DNA of 7,139 nucleotides, taken from a virus (Duplodnaviria; Heunggongvirae; Uroviricota; Caudoviricetes). Made by a program: the position numbers and the translations under genes. The stretch is taken from IMG/VR virus record IMGVR_UViG_2541047945_000012, one strand, 5' to 3'. A model generated the notes under the pieces. It searched no databases. It was not told where the DNA came from and saw only the letters and a list, made by a program, of their open reading frames with translations. Position 1 is the stretch's first letter; every line of letters begins with the position of its first letter. Below are positions 1-7,139 of this stretch, piece after piece.

Positions 1-516
1 ATGAAATTTAAAAAATGTCTTCTGCCTGTGGCAATGTTAGCGTCATTCACTCTGGCAGGATGCCAGTCAAATGCTGACGATCATGCTGCCGATGTTTATC
101 AAACCGATCAACTGAATACCAAACAAGAAACTAAAACCGTTAATATTATTTCCATTCTTCCCGCAAAAGTTGCCGTAGACAACTCCCAAAATAAACGGAA
201 CGCACAAGCCTTCGGCGCGCTTATTGGCGCAGTCGCTGGCGGTGTTATCGGCCACAACGTCGGGTCTGGCAGCAATTCCGGAACGACGGCAGGTGCAGTT
301 GGCGGCGGAGCTGTAGGCGCGGCAGCGGGTTCTATGGTGAATGATAAAACCTTAGTGGAAGGTGTTTCTTTAACCTATAAGGAAGGCACCAAAGTGTATA
401 CCTCTACCCAGGTGGGTAAAGAGTGCCAGTTTACGACAGGTTTAGCCGTTGTTATTACCACGACGTATAACGAAACGCGTATTCAGCCAAATACCAAATG
501 TCCTGAAAAGAGCTAA
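1..516 (+). CDS. yfgH: Outer-membrane lipoprotein with a glycine-zipper (YcfJ / 17-kDa-antigen-like) segment; YfgH-like
   Basis: ATG at 1, stop at 514-516, 171 aa. Lipoprotein signal peptide MKFKKCLLPVAMLASFTLAG-C with lipobox LAGC and Gln at +2. Gly/Ala-rich block GALIGAVAGGVIGHNVGSGSNSGTTAGAVGGGAVGAAAG resembles glycine-zipper lipoproteins. Symbol is from my recollection of E. coli yfgH-yfgI-guaA synteny and protein size, not from a search. Upstream signals lie outside the window. Confidence 0.8.
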   Translation: MKFKKCLLPVAMLASFTLAGCQSNADDHAADVYQTDQLNTKQETKTVNIISILPAKVAVDNSQNKRNAQAFGALIGAVAGGVIGHNVGSGSNSGTTAGAVGGGAVGAAAGSMVNDKTLVEGVSLTYKEGTKVYTSTQVGKECQFTTGLAVVITTTYNETRIQPNTKCPEKS

Positions 517-531
517 TAATCAGGAGGAGTC

Positions 532-1071
532 ATGAAGAAAGTTTTTCTTTGCGCCATCTTAGCCTCCTTAAGCTATCCGGCTATCGCCTCATCATTGCAG
601 GATCAACTCTCTGCTGTCGCAGAAGCGGAACAGCAAGGTAAAAATGAAGAGCAAAGGCAGCATGACGAATGGGTCGCGGAGCGCAACAGGGAAATCCAGC
701 AAGAGAAGCAACGTCGCGCAAATGCCCAGGCCGCCGCTAACAAAAGAGCGGCAACGGCAGCGGCAAATAAGAAAGCTCGTCAGGATAAACTGGACGCCGA
801 AGCCTCTGCGGACAAAAAACGCGATCAAAGTTATGAAGATGAGCTACGCAGCTTAGAGATTCAGAAACAAAAACTGGCGCTGGCGAAAGAAGAAGCCCGC
901 GTTAAGCGAGAAAACGAATTTATCGATCAGGAACTGAAGCACAAAGCTGCGCAAACCGATGTGGTGCAATCTGAAGCTGACGCCAACAGAAATATGACTG
1001 AAGGCGGTCGCGATCTGATGAAAAGCGTGGGCAAAGCAGAAGAGAACAAATCGGACAGCTGGTTTAATTAA
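532..1071 (+). CDS. yfgI: Secreted Ala/Lys/Glu/Gln-rich coiled-coil periplasmic protein (TolA-domain-II-like composition); YfgI-like
   Basis: SD AGGAGGAG at 521-528, ATG at 532, TAA at 1069-1071, 179 aa. Sec-type signal peptide MKKVFLCAILASLSYPAIA-SS. Mature part is strongly charged and low-complexity (AANKRAATAAANKKARQDKLDAEA...). Symbol is tentative, from recalled synteny and size only. Confidence 0.8.
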   Translation: MKKVFLCAILASLSYPAIASSLQDQLSAVAEAEQQGKNEEQRQHDEWVAERNREIQQEKQRRANAQAAANKRAATAAANKKARQDKLDAEASADKKRDQSYEDELRSLEIQKQKLALAKEEARVKRENEFIDQELKHKAAQTDVVQSEADANRNMTEGGRDLMKSVGKAEENKSDSWFN

Positions 1072-1110
1072 TCGATGTTAGTAACTTCAATCCTATAATT
1101 CTTGAAGATA

Positions 1111-1142
1111 AAAAACCCTCTGTAGTAACAGAGGGTTTTGTT
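1111..1142. terminator. Bidirectional rho-independent terminator
   Basis: Perfect 8-bp stem CCCTCTGT (1116-1123) / ACAGAGGG (1128-1135) with 4-nt loop AGTA, flanked by A5 (1111-1115) and T4 plus GTT (1136-1142). It lies 40 bp after the yfgI-like stop and between the convergent gene sets. Confidence 0.75.
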
Positions 1143-1163
1143 CATTCATAGTGCAGGGTCAAA

Positions 1164-1181
1164 TCATTCCCACTCAATTAT
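1164..1181 (-). other. guaA: Orphan 3'-terminal codons of guaA (GMP synthase), I-I-E-W-E-stop; candidate displaced att-side fragment
   Basis: Minus-strand codons ATA ATT GAG TGG GAA TGA (1181..1164), preceded in frame by TAA (1184..1182). GMP synthases end in ...TIEWE (recalled, not searched). Position and convergent orientation relative to the yfgI-like gene match recalled E. coli K-12 synteny. Only 4-5 codons long, so the call is weak taken alone. Confidence 0.4.
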
Positions 1182-1207
1182 TTACGACAATCATAACTAA
1201 TTGAGTG
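1171..1207. repeat. Perfect 10-bp inverted repeat CACTCAATTA / TAATTGAGTG with 17-bp spacer, overlapping the guaA terminal codons
   Basis: 1171-1180 cactcaatta and 1198-1207 taattgagtg are exact reverse complements. Located at the inferred host/prophage boundary. Confidence 0.6.
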
Positions 1208-1288
1208 ATAACATTTTTCCAAAACTTCATTTTTCTAGTACCGTTTTATATACCGTCACCGGAAATCAGTACCATGAAAAATGCCATG

Positions 1289-1771
1289 CTATCTGGTCAG
1301 GGTGTCGTATTGTTTTTCGCAGACTCTTCCGGCTTCGGCTGCCCGGTCAGCATACTCTGCCAGTTGTCTGTTTCTCTCGAGAGATTTGCTGAGCACGTCG
1401 GCAAGCAAAACTCCGGTGTCTGCGGCTGACGTCCCAGCGCCGACAATGGCGTTATACTGCCTGAGCTGCTCACGGATGGCAAAGAGTTGTTGCTGCAACC
1501 GGCCAGCGCGAGCGGCAGCATCAAGAGCATCATTGCGCGCCTGGTCGATCCTCTGCTGCGCTTCACGTTCATTGATCGATTTCTCCTGTTCGTAGTGCTG
1601 ACGAACTATCTCATCTTCAGCTTTGCGGTCTTCCTTCGCCTGCGCATACCCGGCATCGTACTGACGACTGCCGTGTGCATTCCAGGCTACAACTCCTGAT
1701 ATGACCAGAACAGCAAGCATCGCCATGATAACCAACTGTTTCCAGTATGCTTTTGCGAATGCCCAGATCAT
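1289..1771 (-). CDS. Rz-like i-spanin (inner-membrane spanin subunit)
   Basis: ATG at 1771..1769 overlaps the endolysin stop (ATGA, 1768-1771); SD AGGTG 8 nt upstream; TAG at 1291..1289; 160 aa. N-terminal TM ([21 protein letters not shown]) followed by a charged, Gln/Arg/Glu/Ala-rich predicted coiled coil and a C-terminal Cys. Classic position after the endolysin. Confidence 0.85.
1297..1572 (-). CDS. Rz1-like o-spanin (outer-membrane lipoprotein), fully embedded in the +1 frame of Rz
   Basis: ATG at 1572..1570 with SD AGGAGA 9 nt upstream; 91 aa. Signal peptide [26 protein letters not shown] with lipobox LAGC. Mature part about 65 aa, Pro-rich (8 Pro) with two Cys. Stops 8 nt before the Rz stop. 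Confidence 0.8.
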   Translation of the reverse strand: MNVKRSRGSTRRAMMLLMLPLALAGCSNNSLPSVSSSGSITPLSALGRQPQTPEFCLPTCSANLSRETDNWQSMLTGQPKPEESAKNNTTP

Positions 1772-2397
1772 ACCGCCAGCACCTTACTGGCAGTTATGTA
1801 TCGCGCGCGCCGGTCATCAATGCCGTTCCGGCCACCATTGATAAGCAGAGTTACACGTGCAATATCTCCGGTATACTTCATGCAGCCTTTGCTGGAGAAG
1901 AACCACGCCGCGCTACGAGCCGCGTATTCGTCCTGCGCCAGCAGTTCAGGACTCTCCAGCAGGTCAACCTTAAGACCGTTTCCACAGTCACGATAGTTAT
2001 TCAAACCGGTAATCTGGATAAGTCCGCGCCCACGGTAGTTCCAGCCGTCACCAGGGGCATTGTTCCCCATGCGTTTGCTGTACACCAGATTGGCGATCGC
2101 TCGCTGGCGCTCGAGTGGCAATGGTGGCTCACCAGCACGTCGCCCCAGTGCATTAGCCTGCCCCTGAGTGAGACGCCCAGCCCGAACGAAGTTAGCCAGT
2201 CCGCTGACGCTGTAGTTGAAATTCTCCTGCAACCGGGTGAAGCCCACAGACTCATGCCCGACCTGAGCAATAAACATTGCCAGATCTTCTGGTTTGCTGA
2301 TACCAAACTCTTTCATCGCAGAAGTTATATGCGAGAACCAGCGTGCGGCCAGCGCCTCGCTAATACCAGCAGCTCGCTGGAATTGTTTAATCTCCAT
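1768..2397 (-). CDS. Endolysin, glycoside hydrolase family 19 (chitinase-fold lysozyme), cytoplasmic (no signal or SAR segment)
   Basis: ATG at 2397..2395 with SD GAGG 8 nt upstream; TGA at 1770..1768; 209 aa ([13 protein letters not shown]...). The ORF-track start at 2562 is an upstream extension without an RBS. Contains GH19-type catalytic motifs [10 protein letters not shown] and GRGLIQITG (compare plant chitinase HETG and RGPIQ(I/L)S motifs, from memory). Confidence 0.85.
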
Positions 2398-2695
2398 GTT
2401 TAGACCTCGATATTTTGAAAATCTGAACAACGTTACCGCGTGTTTTAATAACCGCGGCAAGCATGACAGCGTTGATAATGACCTCAGATAAATCCACAGC
2501 CATTGGCGTGCGTAACCAGATTGCATAAGCGACACGAACTGGAATGCTGGCCGCAGCAACAATCAGGAAATAAGCAAGCCACCCACCCCATCGCCTGTGT
2601 TGAGAACCGTTTCTCCGAAATGTGGCAACTCGAACTGCTATACCGGCGCAAATAACCGCATTGGTGATAAGCAAAAAAAGCTCATGAGTTACCAT
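2387..2695 (-). CDS. Small membrane protein between holin and endolysin (2-3 TM; candidate antiholin, second holin or lysis regulator)
   Basis: ATG at 2695..2693 with SD GGGGAG 8 nt upstream; TAA at 2389..2387; 102 aa. Overlaps the holin 3' end by 14 bp and the endolysin start by 11 bp, suggesting translational coupling. TM1 [16 protein letters not shown], a highly basic loop ([15 protein letters not shown]), TM2 [22 protein letters not shown], and a possible short third hydrophobic segment. Confidence 0.7.
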
Positions 2696-3086
2696 CGTCT
2701 TTTCTCCCCGGAATTAACTCGCGTGGATTATCGGAACGGTGATAGAGCCAGATCCCAATTCGCACAGCGACGATTGCTGACACAAATGCACCGGCAGAGA
2801 AAACAATCCCTTTCTCGAAAGAATCCTGTGTGATTGTAGGGATCAGGCTGGCTATGCCGATAAGAATTGATGCTGCTGGTTTGTAGAATAGAAGTCCGCA
2901 GAGAAAGCTAAGCATCGACAAGAGCACGCGACGACGAATGGGATACTCTACCGCAGAGGTAACAAAAATCACCGCCCCAGCCAAAGACCCCAAAGCAACC
3001 TCAGGAGGAACTCCTGCTATCACTGCCGCCAAAGAACTCATGCTAAGCCACTGATTTAAAGTTTCACTGGTTAGTTGAGCTGACAT
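2682..3086 (-). CDS. Holin, class-I-like (three TM segments, charged C-terminal tail)
   Basis: ATG at 3086..3084 (MSAQLTSETLNQW...), preceded by GGTGG with a 5-nt spacer; an in-frame GTG at 3095 is the ORF-track start. TGA at 2684..2682; about 134 aa. Three hydrophobic segments (LAAVIAGVPPEVALGSLAGAVIFV; VLLSMLSFLCGLLFY...ILIGIASLI; IVFSAGAFVSAIVAVRIGIWLY) and a charged tail [19 protein letters not shown]. First gene of the lysis cluster. Confidence 0.75.
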   Translation of the reverse strand: MSAQLTSETLNQWLSMSSLAAVIAGVPPEVALGSLAGAVIFVTSAVEYPIRRRVLLSMLSFLCGLLFYKPAASILIGIASLIPTITQDSFEKGIVFSAGAFVSAIVAVRIGIWLYHRSDNPRELIPGRKDDGNS

Positions 3087-3143
3087 GTTTTCCACCGTTT
3101 ATATGCATAACTACCTCCTGAACAGTAAAGCATTACGCATGAT

Positions 3144-3159
3144 AAACCATTTATGGTTT
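3144..3159. promoter_or_regulatory. Perfect 16-bp palindrome AAACCAT-TT-ATGGTTT just downstream of the putative promoter (candidate operator or 5'-UTR hairpin)
   Basis: 7-bp arms are exact reverse complements with a 2-bp centre. Starts about 12 bp downstream of the -10 hexamer, so it overlaps the predicted transcription start region of the lysis operon. Confidence 0.45.
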
Positions 3160-3170
3160 TTTGTTACCCA

Positions 3171-3199
3171 ATATTACCAATCCAATTCGCGATGGTCAA
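3171..3199 (-). promoter_or_regulatory. Candidate sigma70 promoter for the lysis operon: TTGACC - 17 nt - TAATAT, with TGn extended -10
   Basis: On the minus strand, -35 TTGACC (3199..3194), 17-nt spacer, -10 TAATAT (3176..3171) preceded by TGG. AT-rich upstream. Predicted start near 3164, about 78 nt upstream of the holin ATG. Confidence 0.45.
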
Positions 3200-3451
3200 A
3201 ACATATCCACAGCGGTAAGTTTGAGTGTTTTCATTTCCAAAACTTTATACAATAATATATGCAGTCTGTTATTTTTACGCACAATAAAAACACGATACCA
3301 GCTATTTCGCCATAAATACAATTTCCTTTAATGCTGCCAACAGTGCCTGCAAAACATATAACAGAACACATAAATAACAGGCATAATATAGATTTAATAA
3401 TCCAAGTGCATATAAATATCATTTAAGAAGTTAAGATCATTATTATAATAA

Positions 3452-3483
3452 CAATAACCCCGCTGTTTTATTCGGGGTTATTG
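3452..3483. terminator. Hairpin terminator downstream of the tail fibre gene
   Basis: Stem AACCCCG (3456-3462) / CGGGGTT (3473-3479), extendable to 11 bp, with a 10-nt loop. On the minus strand it is followed by a U-rich tract (TTATTATAATA). It begins 10 bp after the tail fibre stop (3493-3495). Confidence 0.5.
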
Positions 3484-3492
3484 CATTTATTA

Positions 3493-4029
3493 TTACATTG
3501 ACATTAATATAAACATGGCTAATTCGTCATAACGAATTCCGTAGCGTCCTCCTGCTTTTTTTACAAGAATCATATCTCCTGTTTTATATTGAGAATAAAT
3601 TTTCTCACCTGTATCAGGATCTGTGCTCTCTTCAGTTATCACCTCTTCATCCCATACGTCAGGCCATTCATCGTAACACCAAAAAGCATATTGCTCAGGG
3701 TTTAAACCATGCTTTCTAAGAATATCCCCTACGGTTTGAGCGCCAACGCCAAAATGATACCTGGACGACTCAATTCCTTTGTGATTAATTGAGTCATTAA
3801 ATTTAAATTTATAGATGACTGACTTTATTTCAATAGCGGCATCACGCTCTGCATTAAGAATATCATATCTTGTTTTAAGAGTTTCATCTGACGTATTGAT
3901 TGACCCGGTTCCTGCATAGATAACAGAGCATCTGTTTGATGGCTGTCCAATAGCTTTAACATTATCATCAACAGGAGCTATTTTATTAGCATCTGCCAAC
4001 CACCAGTCTGTTCCATCAGCGTGACCGAT
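3493..4029 (-). pseudogene. Tail fibre/tailspike gene, C-terminal fragment (distal to the IS2 insertion) including an intramolecular-chaperone-like domain
   Basis: In frame with fragment 5361-6914 once IS2 and one copy of the 5-bp duplication are removed. TAA at 3495..3493. Encodes ...GHADGTDWWLADANKIAPVDD...SINTSDETLKTRYDIL...GGRYGIRYDELAMFILMSM. The first 9 codons of ORF-track entry 3493..4056 are IS2-derived. Confidence 0.8.
4025..4029. repeat. IS2 target-site duplication, copy 1 (CCGAT)
   Basis: ccgat immediately flanks the IS2 end at 4030; identical to 5361-5365. Confidence 0.85.
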
Positions 4030-4040
4030 TGGATTTGCCC

Positions 4041-4946
4041 CTATATTTCCAGACATCTGTTATCACTTAACCCATTACAAGCCCGCTGCCGCAGATATTC
4101 CCGTGGCGAGCGATAACCCAGCGCACTATGCGGATGCCATTCGTTATAATGCTCGAACGCCTCTGCAAGGTTCTTTGCTGCCGTTAACCCGTCTGGTTTG
4201 GGCATGATACTGATGTAGTCACGCTTTATCGTTTTCACGAAGCTCTCTGCTATTCCGTTACTCTCCGGACTCCGCACCGCCGTGTTCTTCGGTTCAAGTC
4301 CCAACATCCGGGCGAACTGGCGTGTTTCATTAGCCCGGTAGCATGAACCATTATCCGTCAGCCACTCCACTGGAGACGACGGAAGATCGTTGCCGAAGCG
4401 GCGTTCCACCGCTCCCAGCATGACGTCCTGTACTGTTTCACTGTTGAAGCCGCCGGTAGTGACCGCCCAGTGCAGTGCCTCACGATCACAGCAGTCCAGC
4501 GCGAACGTGACACGCAGTCTCTCTCCGTTATCACAGCAGAACTCGAACCCGTCAGAGCACCATCGCTGATTGCTTTCTTTCACGGCCACTCTGCCTGTAT
4601 GTGCCCGTTTCGATGGCGGTACAGCAGGTTTTCGCTCAAGCAACAGCGCATTCTGGCGCATGATCCGGTAAACACGTTTGGCATTGATCGCAGGCATACC
4701 ATCAAGTTCTGCCTGTCTGCGAAGCAGCGCCCATACCCGACGATAACCATACGTTGGCAGCTCTCCGATAACATGGTGTATACGGAGAAGCACATCCGTA
4801 TCATCAGTGTGACGACTGCGGCGGCCATCCATCCAGTCATCGGTTCGTCTGAGAATGACGTGCAACTGCGCACGCGACACCCGGAGACAACGGCTGACTA
4901 AGCTTACTCCCCATCCCCGGGCAATAAGGGCGCGTGCGCTATCCAC
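4041..4946 (-). CDS. insD: IS2 transposase OrfB (InsD; DDE catalytic domain), normally made as an OrfAB fusion by -1 frameshift
   Basis: 301-aa [37 protein letters not shown]...[11 protein letters not shown], recognised as IS2 InsD. Overlaps insC in the -1 frame at the A6G site. Confidence 0.9.
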
Positions 4947-5269
4947 TTTTTTGCCCGTCCATATTCAACGGCTTCTTTGAGGAGTTCATTTTCCATCGTT
5001 TTCTTGCCGAGCAGGCGCTGGAGTTCTTTAATCTGCTTCATGGCGGCAGCAAGTTCAGAGGCAGGAACAACCTGTTCTCCGGCGGCGACAGCAGTAAGAC
5101 TTCCTTCCTGGTATTGCTTACGCCAGAGAAATAACTGGCTGGCTGCTACACCATGTTGCCGGGCAACGAGGGAGACCGTCATCCCCGGTTCAAAGCTCTG
5201 CTGAACAATTGCGATCTTTTCCTGTGTGGTACGCCGTCTGCGTTTCTCCGGCCCTAAGACATCAATCAT
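4904..5269 (-). CDS. insC: IS2 OrfA (InsC; helix-turn-helix DNA-binding/regulatory protein)
   Basis: ATG at 5269..5267 with SD GGAG 5 nt upstream; 121 aa [41 protein letters not shown]... The ORF-track start at 5314 is an upstream extension. Confidence 0.9.
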
Positions 5270-5360
5270 CTGTTCTCCAATGACTAGTCTAAAAACTAGT
5301 ATTAAGACTATCACTTATTTAAGTGATATTGGTTGTCTGGAGATTCAGGGGGCCAGTCTA

Positions 5361-5365
5361 CCGAT
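5361..5365. repeat. IS2 target-site duplication, copy 2 (CCGAT)
   Basis: ccgat immediately after the IS2 end at 5360; identical to 4025-4029. Confidence 0.85.
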
Positions 5366-6914
5366 TCTTACTCTTATCCCACTTCTAATATTTAAACTTC
5401 CAGTATTACTCTGTAAATTACAATCTCCTGAAGTTGGTCCAAGCAGTACAGTTTTACCAACACCACATACTACTCTGGCATTTCCTTTTTGTGATACGAG
5501 TCTTGACTCACCTCCTGACTGCTCAGGAAGAGATTTATGGTCTACAAATGCATCGCGGGGGTTAAATACACCGTCTCCAGAATTATATCTTCCTCCTGTA
5601 TAGTTGTTAAATACAGGACCCCAGTCAACGCCATTGCCTTCAGAGCACCCGACCATTCTAAGCACTCGAGTATTCCCTGCTGCATATGGTAATGAGCTTG
5701 TTGATTGCCTGGAAGCTATCATACGTGCTCCATAACCAATAGCATTACCACCATTTATAGTTACATATGCTGGCTGGCTTTCGAAATATGTACTGTAAAA
5801 GTTCATATTTCCACAGTCATGTAGATGAATAAGAACATCATCCCATCCCTGAATGGTTCCTGCATGTACCTGTACACCGCGAACTGGTTCCCCTGAAACC
5901 TCCATACACTCTGATGGCCGGCTGAATGGCTGAGACAGGTATTGCGATGTGGCAAGCAGATGTGTGTGGTGATACAGGCTGGTAATGTAGCAATCGAAAA
6001 ATTGCGTTCCCGCCATACCAAAGTTATCTATGTCATTTCGCCGTATAGTAGAACCTACTGTTGCCTCAGAAGCGTTAGACACTCCAGTAAATACTAACTT
6101 ATCACCGGATACGGATAATCCTGAATAAGTGAAATTCCTGCCTCCCGATCTTAAAACCCCGGACGTTTCGAAGGTGTGGCTTGATGACCATGGGATTTCG
6201 ATAGTGCTGGACGTTACCGCTGTAATTCGGAATACATCATGGGCGCGGATCGAAACACCCTTGAATCCCTGGAATCTACAGTGATAATAGTTTTCATCCT
6301 CGCCCTGAGCGGCCAGCGTGCCAGATACAGGAATGTTCGTTTTTAAAAGTGCCGTCTTGCGCCAGTATCCAACCACCTGCAAATTGCGGTATTCATTGCC
6401 AAAAGACGCACGTGACCAAATACCTACATCCCACTCATCGCCAAGACCGGTATTTGCAATGTCTTTATAACCATCCAGCCCATTGAAATATGGAACAATA
6501 CGAAAGTTCTCAAGGCGAACACATCCTGTCTCTGGCATCAATATTGCGGCAGAGAATGGTTTAAGCGTGGCTCTTGTAGCCCCATTAGCATCACCGTTAG
6601 TAAAATCCAATAAATCATATGATGACGCAGGTGCCGTTGTTGTATACGGGTCTTCGGAAGATGGATTAGAAACCACACCACCACTAACATCCATATTAGA
6701 AACACAATCTACAGTATATTTTTTATTTCCTACACCGTACATCAGGAATGTGGTCCCTGTGGTAATATCAGGAGCAAATGTTGCAGTATATCCAGAGACC
6801 CATTTGCCCACACCAAGACCAATTATCCCACCACCAGAAACAGGTGTTAACGTATCCGTTATTACATACGCATTATCAGTACCATAAATAACCTTTCCTG
6901 TGTTAATGGCAGCT
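5361..6914 (-). pseudogene. Tail fibre/tailspike gene, central fragment between the IS3-family element and IS2; 5' end missing
   Basis: Open frame of about 517 codons running from the IS3-family terminus (6915) to the IS2 terminus. Gly/Ser/Thr/Asn/Tyr-rich, as in receptor-binding fibre or spike bodies. No credible start codon or RBS inside the fragment, so the N-terminal part must lie beyond the IS element. Codons 1-61 of the 584-aa ORF-track entry are out-of-frame readthrough of the IS transposase. Confidence 0.7.
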
Positions 6915-7139
6915 TGAACCGCCCCGGGTTTCCTGGAGAGTATTTTATCTGTGAACTCAGGCTGCCAGATCATCGTTTCCGATGGAAGCATAATAAGCTT
7001 TTTCTGCTTCTGCCGGAGGAGTATGGCCCAGCCTTTCCAGCAATCGTCGATTGTTATACCAGTCCACCCACGTGAGTGTGGCCAGTTCCACTTCTGCACG
7101 GTTTTTCCAGCTCTTACGGTGTATTACCTCCGCTTTGTA
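6915..7139 (-). mobile_element. IS3-family insertion sequence (IS629/IS1203-like), partial; right end only, continuing beyond the window
   Basis: Terminal sequence on the plus strand from 6915: TGAACCGCCCCGGGTTTCCTGGAGAGTATTTTATCTGTGAACTCAGG, the TG...-type IS3-family end that I recall for IS629. It is followed by the transposase OrfB C-terminus. Exact IS identity not verified. Confidence 0.7.
6957..7139 (-). CDS. IS3-family transposase OrfB, C-terminal 60 codons (5'-truncated by window edge)
   Basis: Minus-strand translation ...YKAEVIHRKSWKNRAEVELATLTWVDWYNNRRLLERLGHTPPAEAEKAYYASIGNDDLAA-stop, with TGA at 6959..6957. This is a typical C-terminal tail of an IS3-family DDE transposase. Confidence 0.75.
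   Translation of the reverse strand, partial: YKAEVIHRKSWKNRAEVELATLTWVDWYNNRRLLERLGHTPPAEAEKAYYASIGNDDLAA

Follow-up and report, generated by a model that had tools for sequence, protein, structure and literature searches.

A canonical IS2 copy, very probably inserted by ordinary transposition, in a prophage tailspike gene already split by an IS629/IS1203-like element

IS2 is among the earliest insertion sequences described. One copy lies in a stretch of 7,139 nucleotides (the window, in what follows) from the virus record IMGVR_UViG_2541047945_000012. The window corresponds to positions 14056-6918 of scaffold KE702418.1 (L007) in the draft assembly GCA_000461395.1. A sequence-only reading had described the copy as complete, with intact ends and a perfect 5-bp target-site duplication, and had suggested that it was recent and still mobile. 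The locus thus raises the question of whether the element is IS2 itself, what it interrupted, and how and when it came to this site. Taking all the evidence together, we consider it very probable that a canonical IS2 was inserted by ordinary transposition, which made a duplication of CCGAT, into the tailspike gene of a prophage adjacent to yfgI, and that this gene had already been split by an IS629/IS1203-like element.

Using direct reading and a scripted check, we determined that the segment between the two CCGAT copies is exactly 1331 bp long and occupies positions 4030-5360 of the window, which confirmed the earlier coordinates. IS2 is carried on the minus strand; position 5360 marks its left end and position 4030 its right end. 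Read in this direction, it starts with TAGACTGGCCCCCTGAATCTCC (outermost letters TAGACTGGCCCCC) and finishes with GGGGCAAATCCA. This orientation, which the earlier reading did not state, is the same as that of the interrupted gene. All 1331 of the 1331 bases match the IS2 copies of K-12, and the comparison with the yqiG copy of MG1655 gave exact string equality over the 1331 bases. A megablast search showed full-length 100% identity to IS2 copies in K-12 MG1655, C600, J53 and many other genomes. Of the 5,426 complete E. coli genomes, 4,902 gave megablast matches to IS2; a genome that carries IS2 has it at a median of 4 places, and the copies in these genomes are mostly at least 99% identical. 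In RefSeq, the K-12 MG1655 copy is labelled 'IS3-like element IS2 family transposase, programmed frameshift', and the same join of orfA and orfB is annotated. Elements are assigned to the same insertion sequence when full-length nucleotide identity to the reference IS2 exceeds about 95% at a length of 1331 bp; the window element has this length and is identical to the reference. Judged by its sequence, the segment 4030-5360 is IS2 itself rather than a relative: it is canonical and full-length, it belongs to the IS2 group within the IS3 family, and every sequence-level feature of IS2 membership was found in it. The element as such was already known, and by its bases this copy is an ordinary one.

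The ends of IS2 differ from each other in length and in their terminal letters: the left inverted repeat (IRL) has 42 bp and ends in TA-3', and the right inverted repeat (IRR) has 41 bp and ends in CA-3' (PMC3299598, PMC3219604). The window copy agrees with this description. Its IRL occupies 5319-5360 on the minus strand, has the outer end ...CCAGTCTA-3' (TA-3') and would be the recipient-only end; its sequence is the one printed for IRL in PMC3219604. The IRR occupies 4030-4070 on the same strand and ends in ...AAATCCA-3' (CA-3'); IRR is the donor end (PMC3299598). When the two repeats are compared without gaps, they go out of register after 12 bp, whereas a gapped alignment gives 31 matches with a 1-bp gap and shows the known 1-bp difference in length. 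The ungapped core of the repeats is formed by 5319-5351 against 4038-4070. Thus, the ends are intact, as had been claimed, without a mismatch to K-12 IS2. The IRL (5319-5360, minus strand) also holds the region of the weak promoter PIRL and supplies the -10 half of the promoter that forms at the minicircle junction. A consensus promoter and terminator scan of positions 3000-5500 flagged neither the weak extended -10 promoter PIRL nor terminators; such a scan is uninformative for IS2. Rfam at its gathering thresholds gave no match in the window, and IS2 is therefore without a catalogued RNA element here.

Between the ends, both frames of the transposase are open. The orfA (insC) frame, at 4904-5269 on the minus strand, encodes a helix-turn-helix protein of 121 amino acids, the putative repressor of PIRL. 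It is matched by the Pfam family HTH_Tnp_1 with 70.2 bits and by the NCBIfam model 'IS2 repressor TnpA' with 238.8 bits against a cut-off of 229. The orfB (insD) frame, at 4041-4946 on the minus strand, has 301 codons and a predicted catalytic core of the DDE integrase type (Pfam HTH_21, rve, rve_3). It reaches 723.9 bits with the NCBIfam model 'IS2 transposase TnpB' (cut-off 597), and the model 'IS3 family transposase' gives 279.5 bits (cut-off 160). The two frames overlap in the 0 and -1 phases. Within the overlap lies the slippery heptamer AAAAAAG (A6G), read from 4952 to 4946 on the minus strand, which is the only copy of this motif in IS2. It is phased as A AAA AAG, with the first A as the third base of an orfA codon, and its role in the programmed -1 frameshift has been described (PMC3299598, PMC3219604). 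A -1 shift at this place joins the frames into an OrfAB fusion of 409 amino acids (5269 to 4041) with no internal stop. The claims of intact insC and insD frames and of the A6G signal therefore held, with Pfam and NCBIfam in agreement.

We compared the window copy with several known elements. The K-12 copy in yqiG (NZ_CP032667.1, 695949-697279) has the same 1331 bases, the same IRL, IRR, orfA, orfB and A6G heptamer and the same length of duplication; it differs only in the site and in the pentamer, which is GTTAT at yqiG and CCGAT in the window. An IS2 isoform in strain F2_407_2_2 (NZ_CP074756.1, 7794-9124 of the locus L003) is likewise 1331 bp long and is flanked by a 5-bp duplication, AAGGG. 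Its target is again a prophage tailspike gene: the prophage is a related one, it occupies the same slot adjacent to yfgI, and gene and isoform have the relative orientation seen in the window. In contrast to the window copy, it has 97.6% identity (32 mismatches), is located near codon 21 and interrupts a tailspike with a different receptor-binding part. The insertion in F2_407_2_2 is an independent event. Like IS2, the elements IS911 and IS3 have two ORFs, a programmed -1 frameshift and a DDE (rve) transposase, and their copy-out-paste-in transposition passes through a figure-of-eight and then a minicircle that bears a junction promoter (PMC3299598). Unlike them, IS2 uses the right end as its sole donor, and its left end, with TA-3', is 1 bp longer and serves only as recipient; functional minicircles of IS2 need a 1-bp spacer, and the duplication has 5 bp instead of 3-4 bp (PMC3299598, PMC3219604). 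The IS629-like neighbour in the window also differs from IS2 here, having a duplication of the 3-bp type (AGC).

All the sequence parts needed for the published IS2 pathway are present in the window copy and identical to the reference. By analogy, we infer that this copy moved by the same pathway. In that case, the weak extended -10 promoter in IRL would drive orfA, and the OrfA protein would repress the same promoter, while a rare -1 frameshift at A6G would yield the OrfAB transposase (PMC3299598, PMC3219604). OrfAB would then cut only IRR, at CA-3', and join it next to IRL, at TA-3', to give a figure-of-eight, which host replication would convert into a minicircle (PMC3299598, PMC3219604). 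The ends abutted in the minicircle, with a 1-bp spacer between them, would form the strong junction promoter Pjunc (PMC3299598, PMC3219604). Finally, both ends would attack the target 5 bp apart, and repair would leave the duplication (PMC3299598, PMC3219604).

On re-inspection, CCGAT was found to stand directly at both ends of the element, at 4025-4029 on the left and at 5361-5365 on the right, in accordance with the sequence-only reading. Extending it to 6 bp fails on both sides. Homology sets the limits of the element without reference to the repeat, and the chance of a match in five of five flanking letters is then about 1/1024. Direct evidence of the duplication comes in addition from uninterrupted relatives, which have a single CCGAT at the site. 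To find them, we removed IS2 and one CCGAT from the window and used 1200 bp around the rebuilt site as a query. The uninterrupted site with one CCGAT turned up in 15 complete E. coli genomes, at 97-99.5% identity. Together with one viral contig from a metagenome (L006 below), the related sequences with an empty site and a single CCGAT number 16. A 40-mer spanning the site with one CCGAT occurs exactly in strains EC21Z-151 and CS5L. The contig L006, from IMG/VR, matches the window at 193-4030 and 5360-7018 with 100.000% identity, over 3838 and 1659 bases, with no mismatch. The two matching pieces overlap by 7 bases, and hence IS2 is absent from this contig and CCGAT occurs once. Thus, the empty target that had been expected in related strains was recovered by sequence search.

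The occupied site is much rarer. It was found in none of the 5,426 complete E. coli genomes at a coverage of at least 80% of the window. The exact junction strings (left and right) were absent from the GTDB species representatives, as they were from the JGI metagenome contigs; the source strain is outside both collections. In IMG/VR, the left junction occurs only once, in the window's own record (L005; positions 1-7009, 100%). The occupied allele was therefore found only in the source assembly, GCA_000461395.1. One E. coli match, in strain F2_407_2_2, was considered as a second occupied site and rejected, since it has a different IS2 isoform, a different position and a different tailspike allele.

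What did IS2 interrupt? Both flanks belong to one gene on the minus strand. Taking out IS2 and one CCGAT leaves its frame open, and the 694 residues rebuilt in this way are 99.7% identical (692/694), without gaps, to residues 298-991 of a 991-residue protein of EC21Z-151, which RefSeq names 'tail fiber domain-containing protein' (WP_089552410.1). The rebuilt protein is matched by PHROG 1171, 'tail spike protein', with E = 3e-206. Residues 589-651, just downstream of the insertion point, match Peptidase_S74 (PF13884) with 23.4 bits against a cut-off of 22, and the Pfam family End_tail_spike gave a match below its cut-off (23.2 vs 25). By homology, the target gene is a phage tailspike with a C-terminal intramolecular chaperone of the Peptidase_S74 type. 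The sequence-only reading had noticed neither this gene nor the second insertion sequence nearby. The S74 chaperone domain is required for the trimer folding of a tailspike. The 3' fragment of the gene, recognized by homology, Pfam and PHROG, occupies 3493-4029 on the minus strand and consists of the last 178 codons and the stop, including the Peptidase_S74 domain. The middle fragment, of about 517 codons, occupies 5361-6914 on the same strand, as judged by homology to the intact relative. It now ends four IS2-encoded codons (RLAP) past the junction, at a TGA stop at 5345-5347. The N-terminal 297 residues lie outside the window, beyond the second insertion sequence on the source scaffold, and are identical to those of EC21Z-151 (297/297). 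The two insertions have therefore split the gene into parts of 297, about 517 and 178 residues, and apart from them the gene has no other defect. IS2 costs the tailspike its C-terminal 178 residues with the S74 chaperone domain, which is a second knockout of an already dead gene. We also noticed an ATG inside the right end of IS2 that is in frame with the severed chaperone domain and opens an ORF of 187 amino acids (3493-4056); read-through from IS2 might in principle express it.

Downstream of the tailspike, on the same strand, Pfam identified two holins, a GH19 endolysin and a DUF2514 (spanin-like) protein. Positions 1162-3170 have 90-94% DNA identity to phiv142-3, TL-2011b, phiV10 and their relatives, and similarity to phages begins at 1162. 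The chromosomal genes yfgI (532-1071) and yfgH (1-516) come next, at the lower coordinates. A tRNA scan of the window found no tRNA, which shows that this end of the prophage is not at a tRNA. According to the comparison of this one prophage end, the target of IS2 is a prophage beside yfgI on the E. coli chromosome that appears to be phiV10/epsilon15-like.

Homology of the tailspike to its intact relatives breaks off at position 6916. From 6915 to 7139, the minus strand encodes the C-terminus of an IS3-family transposase (Pfam rve_2/rve_3), followed by ...CCCGGGGCGGTTCA. This is the 3' end of a second IS3-family element, similar to IS629/IS1203 of the IS3 group and inserted in the same tailspike gene 1.55 kb upstream of IS2. 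Over these 225 bp, copies on Shigella and E. coli plasmids match at 100% identity, and elements annotated as IS1203 at about 96%. Outside the window, the source scaffold shows the element's other end, which starts with TGAACCGCCCCGGGAATCC..., and the element is flanked by the 3-bp duplication AGC. KE702418.1 is a short-read scaffold with a gap of 1000 N inside this element, so its interior sequence is absent. It was also considered whether IS2 and the IS629-like element make up a composite transposon. This was rejected: the ends and the transposases are different and each element has its own duplication (CCGAT and AGC), and thus these are two simple insertions. Their order can be read from L006. 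Since this contig has the junction of the IS629-like element with the tailspike gene and lacks IS2, the IS629-like insertion came first and IS2 second.

The duplication is perfect, the occupied allele and the empty allele of L006 have zero differences over 5,497 flanking bases, the gene carries no lesion besides the second insertion sequence, and the occupied allele is known from one assembly. Together, these sequence data support a very recent insertion. The earlier suggestion of recency, made from the unmutated duplication and the intact frames, is thus further supported by an empty allele without flanking differences and by the absence of the insertion from 5,426 complete E. coli genomes. 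With an assumed substitution rate between 1e-7 and 1e-6 per site and year, the 95% upper limit on the age would be roughly 300 to 3,000 years; zero differences in 5.5 kb bound the age only loosely.

The same data bear on two other histories of the locus. The insertion may be older, with the IS2-free allele of L006 produced by precise excision instead of being the ancestral state. Precise excision leaves one copy of the duplicated pentamer behind and would give a sequence exactly like L006. We nevertheless regard this history as extremely improbable: in K-12 mutation-accumulation lines, one excision was counted against 758 insertions (PMC5009759), the flanks of L006 are at zero divergence, and the site is empty in 15 other genomes, where the gene is more diverged and lies in two types of prophage, which makes the empty site the ancestral one. 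It can also be proposed that IS2 did not transpose into this chromosome and arrived already inside the prophage, or inside a segment of it, by infection or recombination. Tailspike modules are exchanged between phages, and the same receptor-binding module was found in a P22-like prophage of strain CS5L, which would fit such an arrival. However, the tailspike gene had been split by the IS629-like element before IS2 came, so that no infectious particles of this prophage could have brought IS2 in. Moreover, the identity of L006 to the window includes chromosomal yfgH-yfgI from position 193 on, which argues for an event in situ in this lineage, and we consider arrival with the prophage highly improbable. 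Transposition of IS2 into the resident, already split tailspike gene is the reading that we retain.

Is this copy still mobile? The K-12 element, with which it is identical, is active: in mutation-accumulation lines of K-12, 71 of 758 new insertions were due to IS2, which has 6 copies there, the rate was about 0.4e-4 per genome per generation, and no target motif was seen (PMC5009759). By analogy with the K-12 element, the copy in the window is probably still mobile. The intact frames, on the other hand, may describe a consensus of several IS2 copies, the source being a short-read scaffold. The junctions would then be real, the flawless interior would be a product of assembly, and inactivating changes in this particular copy could be masked. 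The 1000-N gap in the neighbouring IS629-like element indicates that repeats troubled the assembly, and IS2 is usually multicopy, given the median of 4 places per genome noted above. Set against this, IS2 was assembled without a gap and the IS629-like element was not, as would be expected of an IS2 that is present in this genome in few copies or in copies that are all identical; besides, IS2 copies in E. coli are for the most part at least 99% identical. On balance, masked damage to this copy appears unlikely, and we keep to the view of an intact and probably mobile IS2.

Three independent IS3-family events have now been noted in tailspike genes of prophages adjacent to yfgI: the IS629-like element and IS2 described here, and the IS2 isoform in F2_407_2_2. 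One may ask whether such tailspikes of the phiV10-like prophages in the yfgI slot receive IS3-family insertions recurrently, above chance, and whether the ORF at 3493-4056 is in addition expressed from IS2 read-through. We consider this combined idea very improbable. Three events in a hand-picked sample establish no excess. If there were one, hosts might be under selection to disable a prophage enzyme that would cut their own surface polysaccharide, or alternatively IS3-family elements might prefer such targets.

Only two things are new here, the insertion site in a prophage tailspike gene, which had not been catalogued before, and the order of the two insertions, and the importance beyond annotation is small. 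At least one PHROG family of 'unknown function' may be an artefact of a tailspike truncated by an insertion sequence. The IS2 junctions can serve as a lineage-specific marker for the source strain. The locus offers a clean, datable case of stepwise decay of a prophage by insertion sequences, with the IS629-like element first and IS2 after it, in which both ancestral states are recoverable.

The prophage that carries the IS2-bearing tailspike gene adjoins the chromosome within window positions 1072-1288. The yfgI gene extends to 1071, the sequence resembles phiV10-type phages from 1162 on, and 1289 marks the end of the first prophage gene, DUF2514. No tRNA gene was found at this boundary.

The tailspike gene is interrupted by a second insertion sequence of the IS3 family, an IS629/IS1203-like element located at 6915-7139 of the window and at 5708-7142 of the source scaffold (L007). 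The break that it makes follows codon 297 and is accompanied by a 3-bp duplication, AGC; in the source assembly, a scaffold gap of 1000 N takes the place of the element's interior. The same insertion is carried by a relative without IS2, the metagenome viral contig L006. Because the IS2-free contig already has it, the IS629/IS1203-like insertion is older than that of IS2.

The minus-strand tailspike fragment between the two elements (window 5345-6914) is of interest for phrog_33794, a PHROGs family of 542 positions described as "unknown function". In the tailspike frame rebuilt by removing IS2, only residues 1-519 matched this profile, over its positions 21-539 (E = 0). The length and boundaries of phrog_33794 agree with the ORF whose start ATG is in the IS629-like end (MIWQPEF...) and whose stop is just within IS2. 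It is possible that the family was derived from this IS-truncated tailspike fragment.

On the other side of IS2, a 187-aa minus-strand ORF (3493-4056) starts with an ATG at 4056-4054, within the IS2 right inverted repeat and in the reading frame of the cut-off tailspike C-terminus. It consists of 9 residues from IS2 and 178 tailspike residues, including the Peptidase_S74 chaperone domain, and is annotated as a gene in the NCBI assembly; no obvious ribosome-binding site was found upstream of it. Within IS2, the A6G slippery site is overlapped by the 5' arm of a 10-nt inverted repeat (4918-4927 and 4948-4957; CGGGCAAAAA ... TTATTGCCCG on the IS2 sense strand, 90% complementary).

The target flank contains CCAGTCT (4003-4009), 20 bp from the insertion point, which is the same as the outer bases of the IS2 left end (CCAGTCT-A; 5353-5359). 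Some IS3-family elements tend to insert near sequences resembling their own ends, and the flank motif may reflect insertion of this type. It may also be a chance match: a 7-mer would be expected to recur within 40 bp to the left or right with a probability of about 1%, as judged post hoc.

A separate event was found in E. coli F2_407_2_2 (NZ_CP074756.1), where an IS2 isoform (L003 7794-9124; 97.6% identical, 32 mismatches), flanked by a 5-bp duplication AAGGG, lies near codon 21 of the tailspike in a related prophage. This prophage occupies the same yfgI-adjacent slot, and the orientation of IS2 relative to the tailspike gene is also the same. A tailspike of E. coli CS5L (NZ_CP158311.1; L004 2551-5256) shares the receptor-binding module of the window tailspike, with 98.6% amino-acid identity over 694 residues. 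It belongs to a different prophage type beside tRNA-Arg/intS and adjoins an Arc-family repressor gene, a P22-like context. When the two full-length proteins are compared, their homology begins at residue 206 of one protein and at residue 111 of its counterpart. The receptor-binding module common to both prophage types is a case of module exchange between podovirus lineages.
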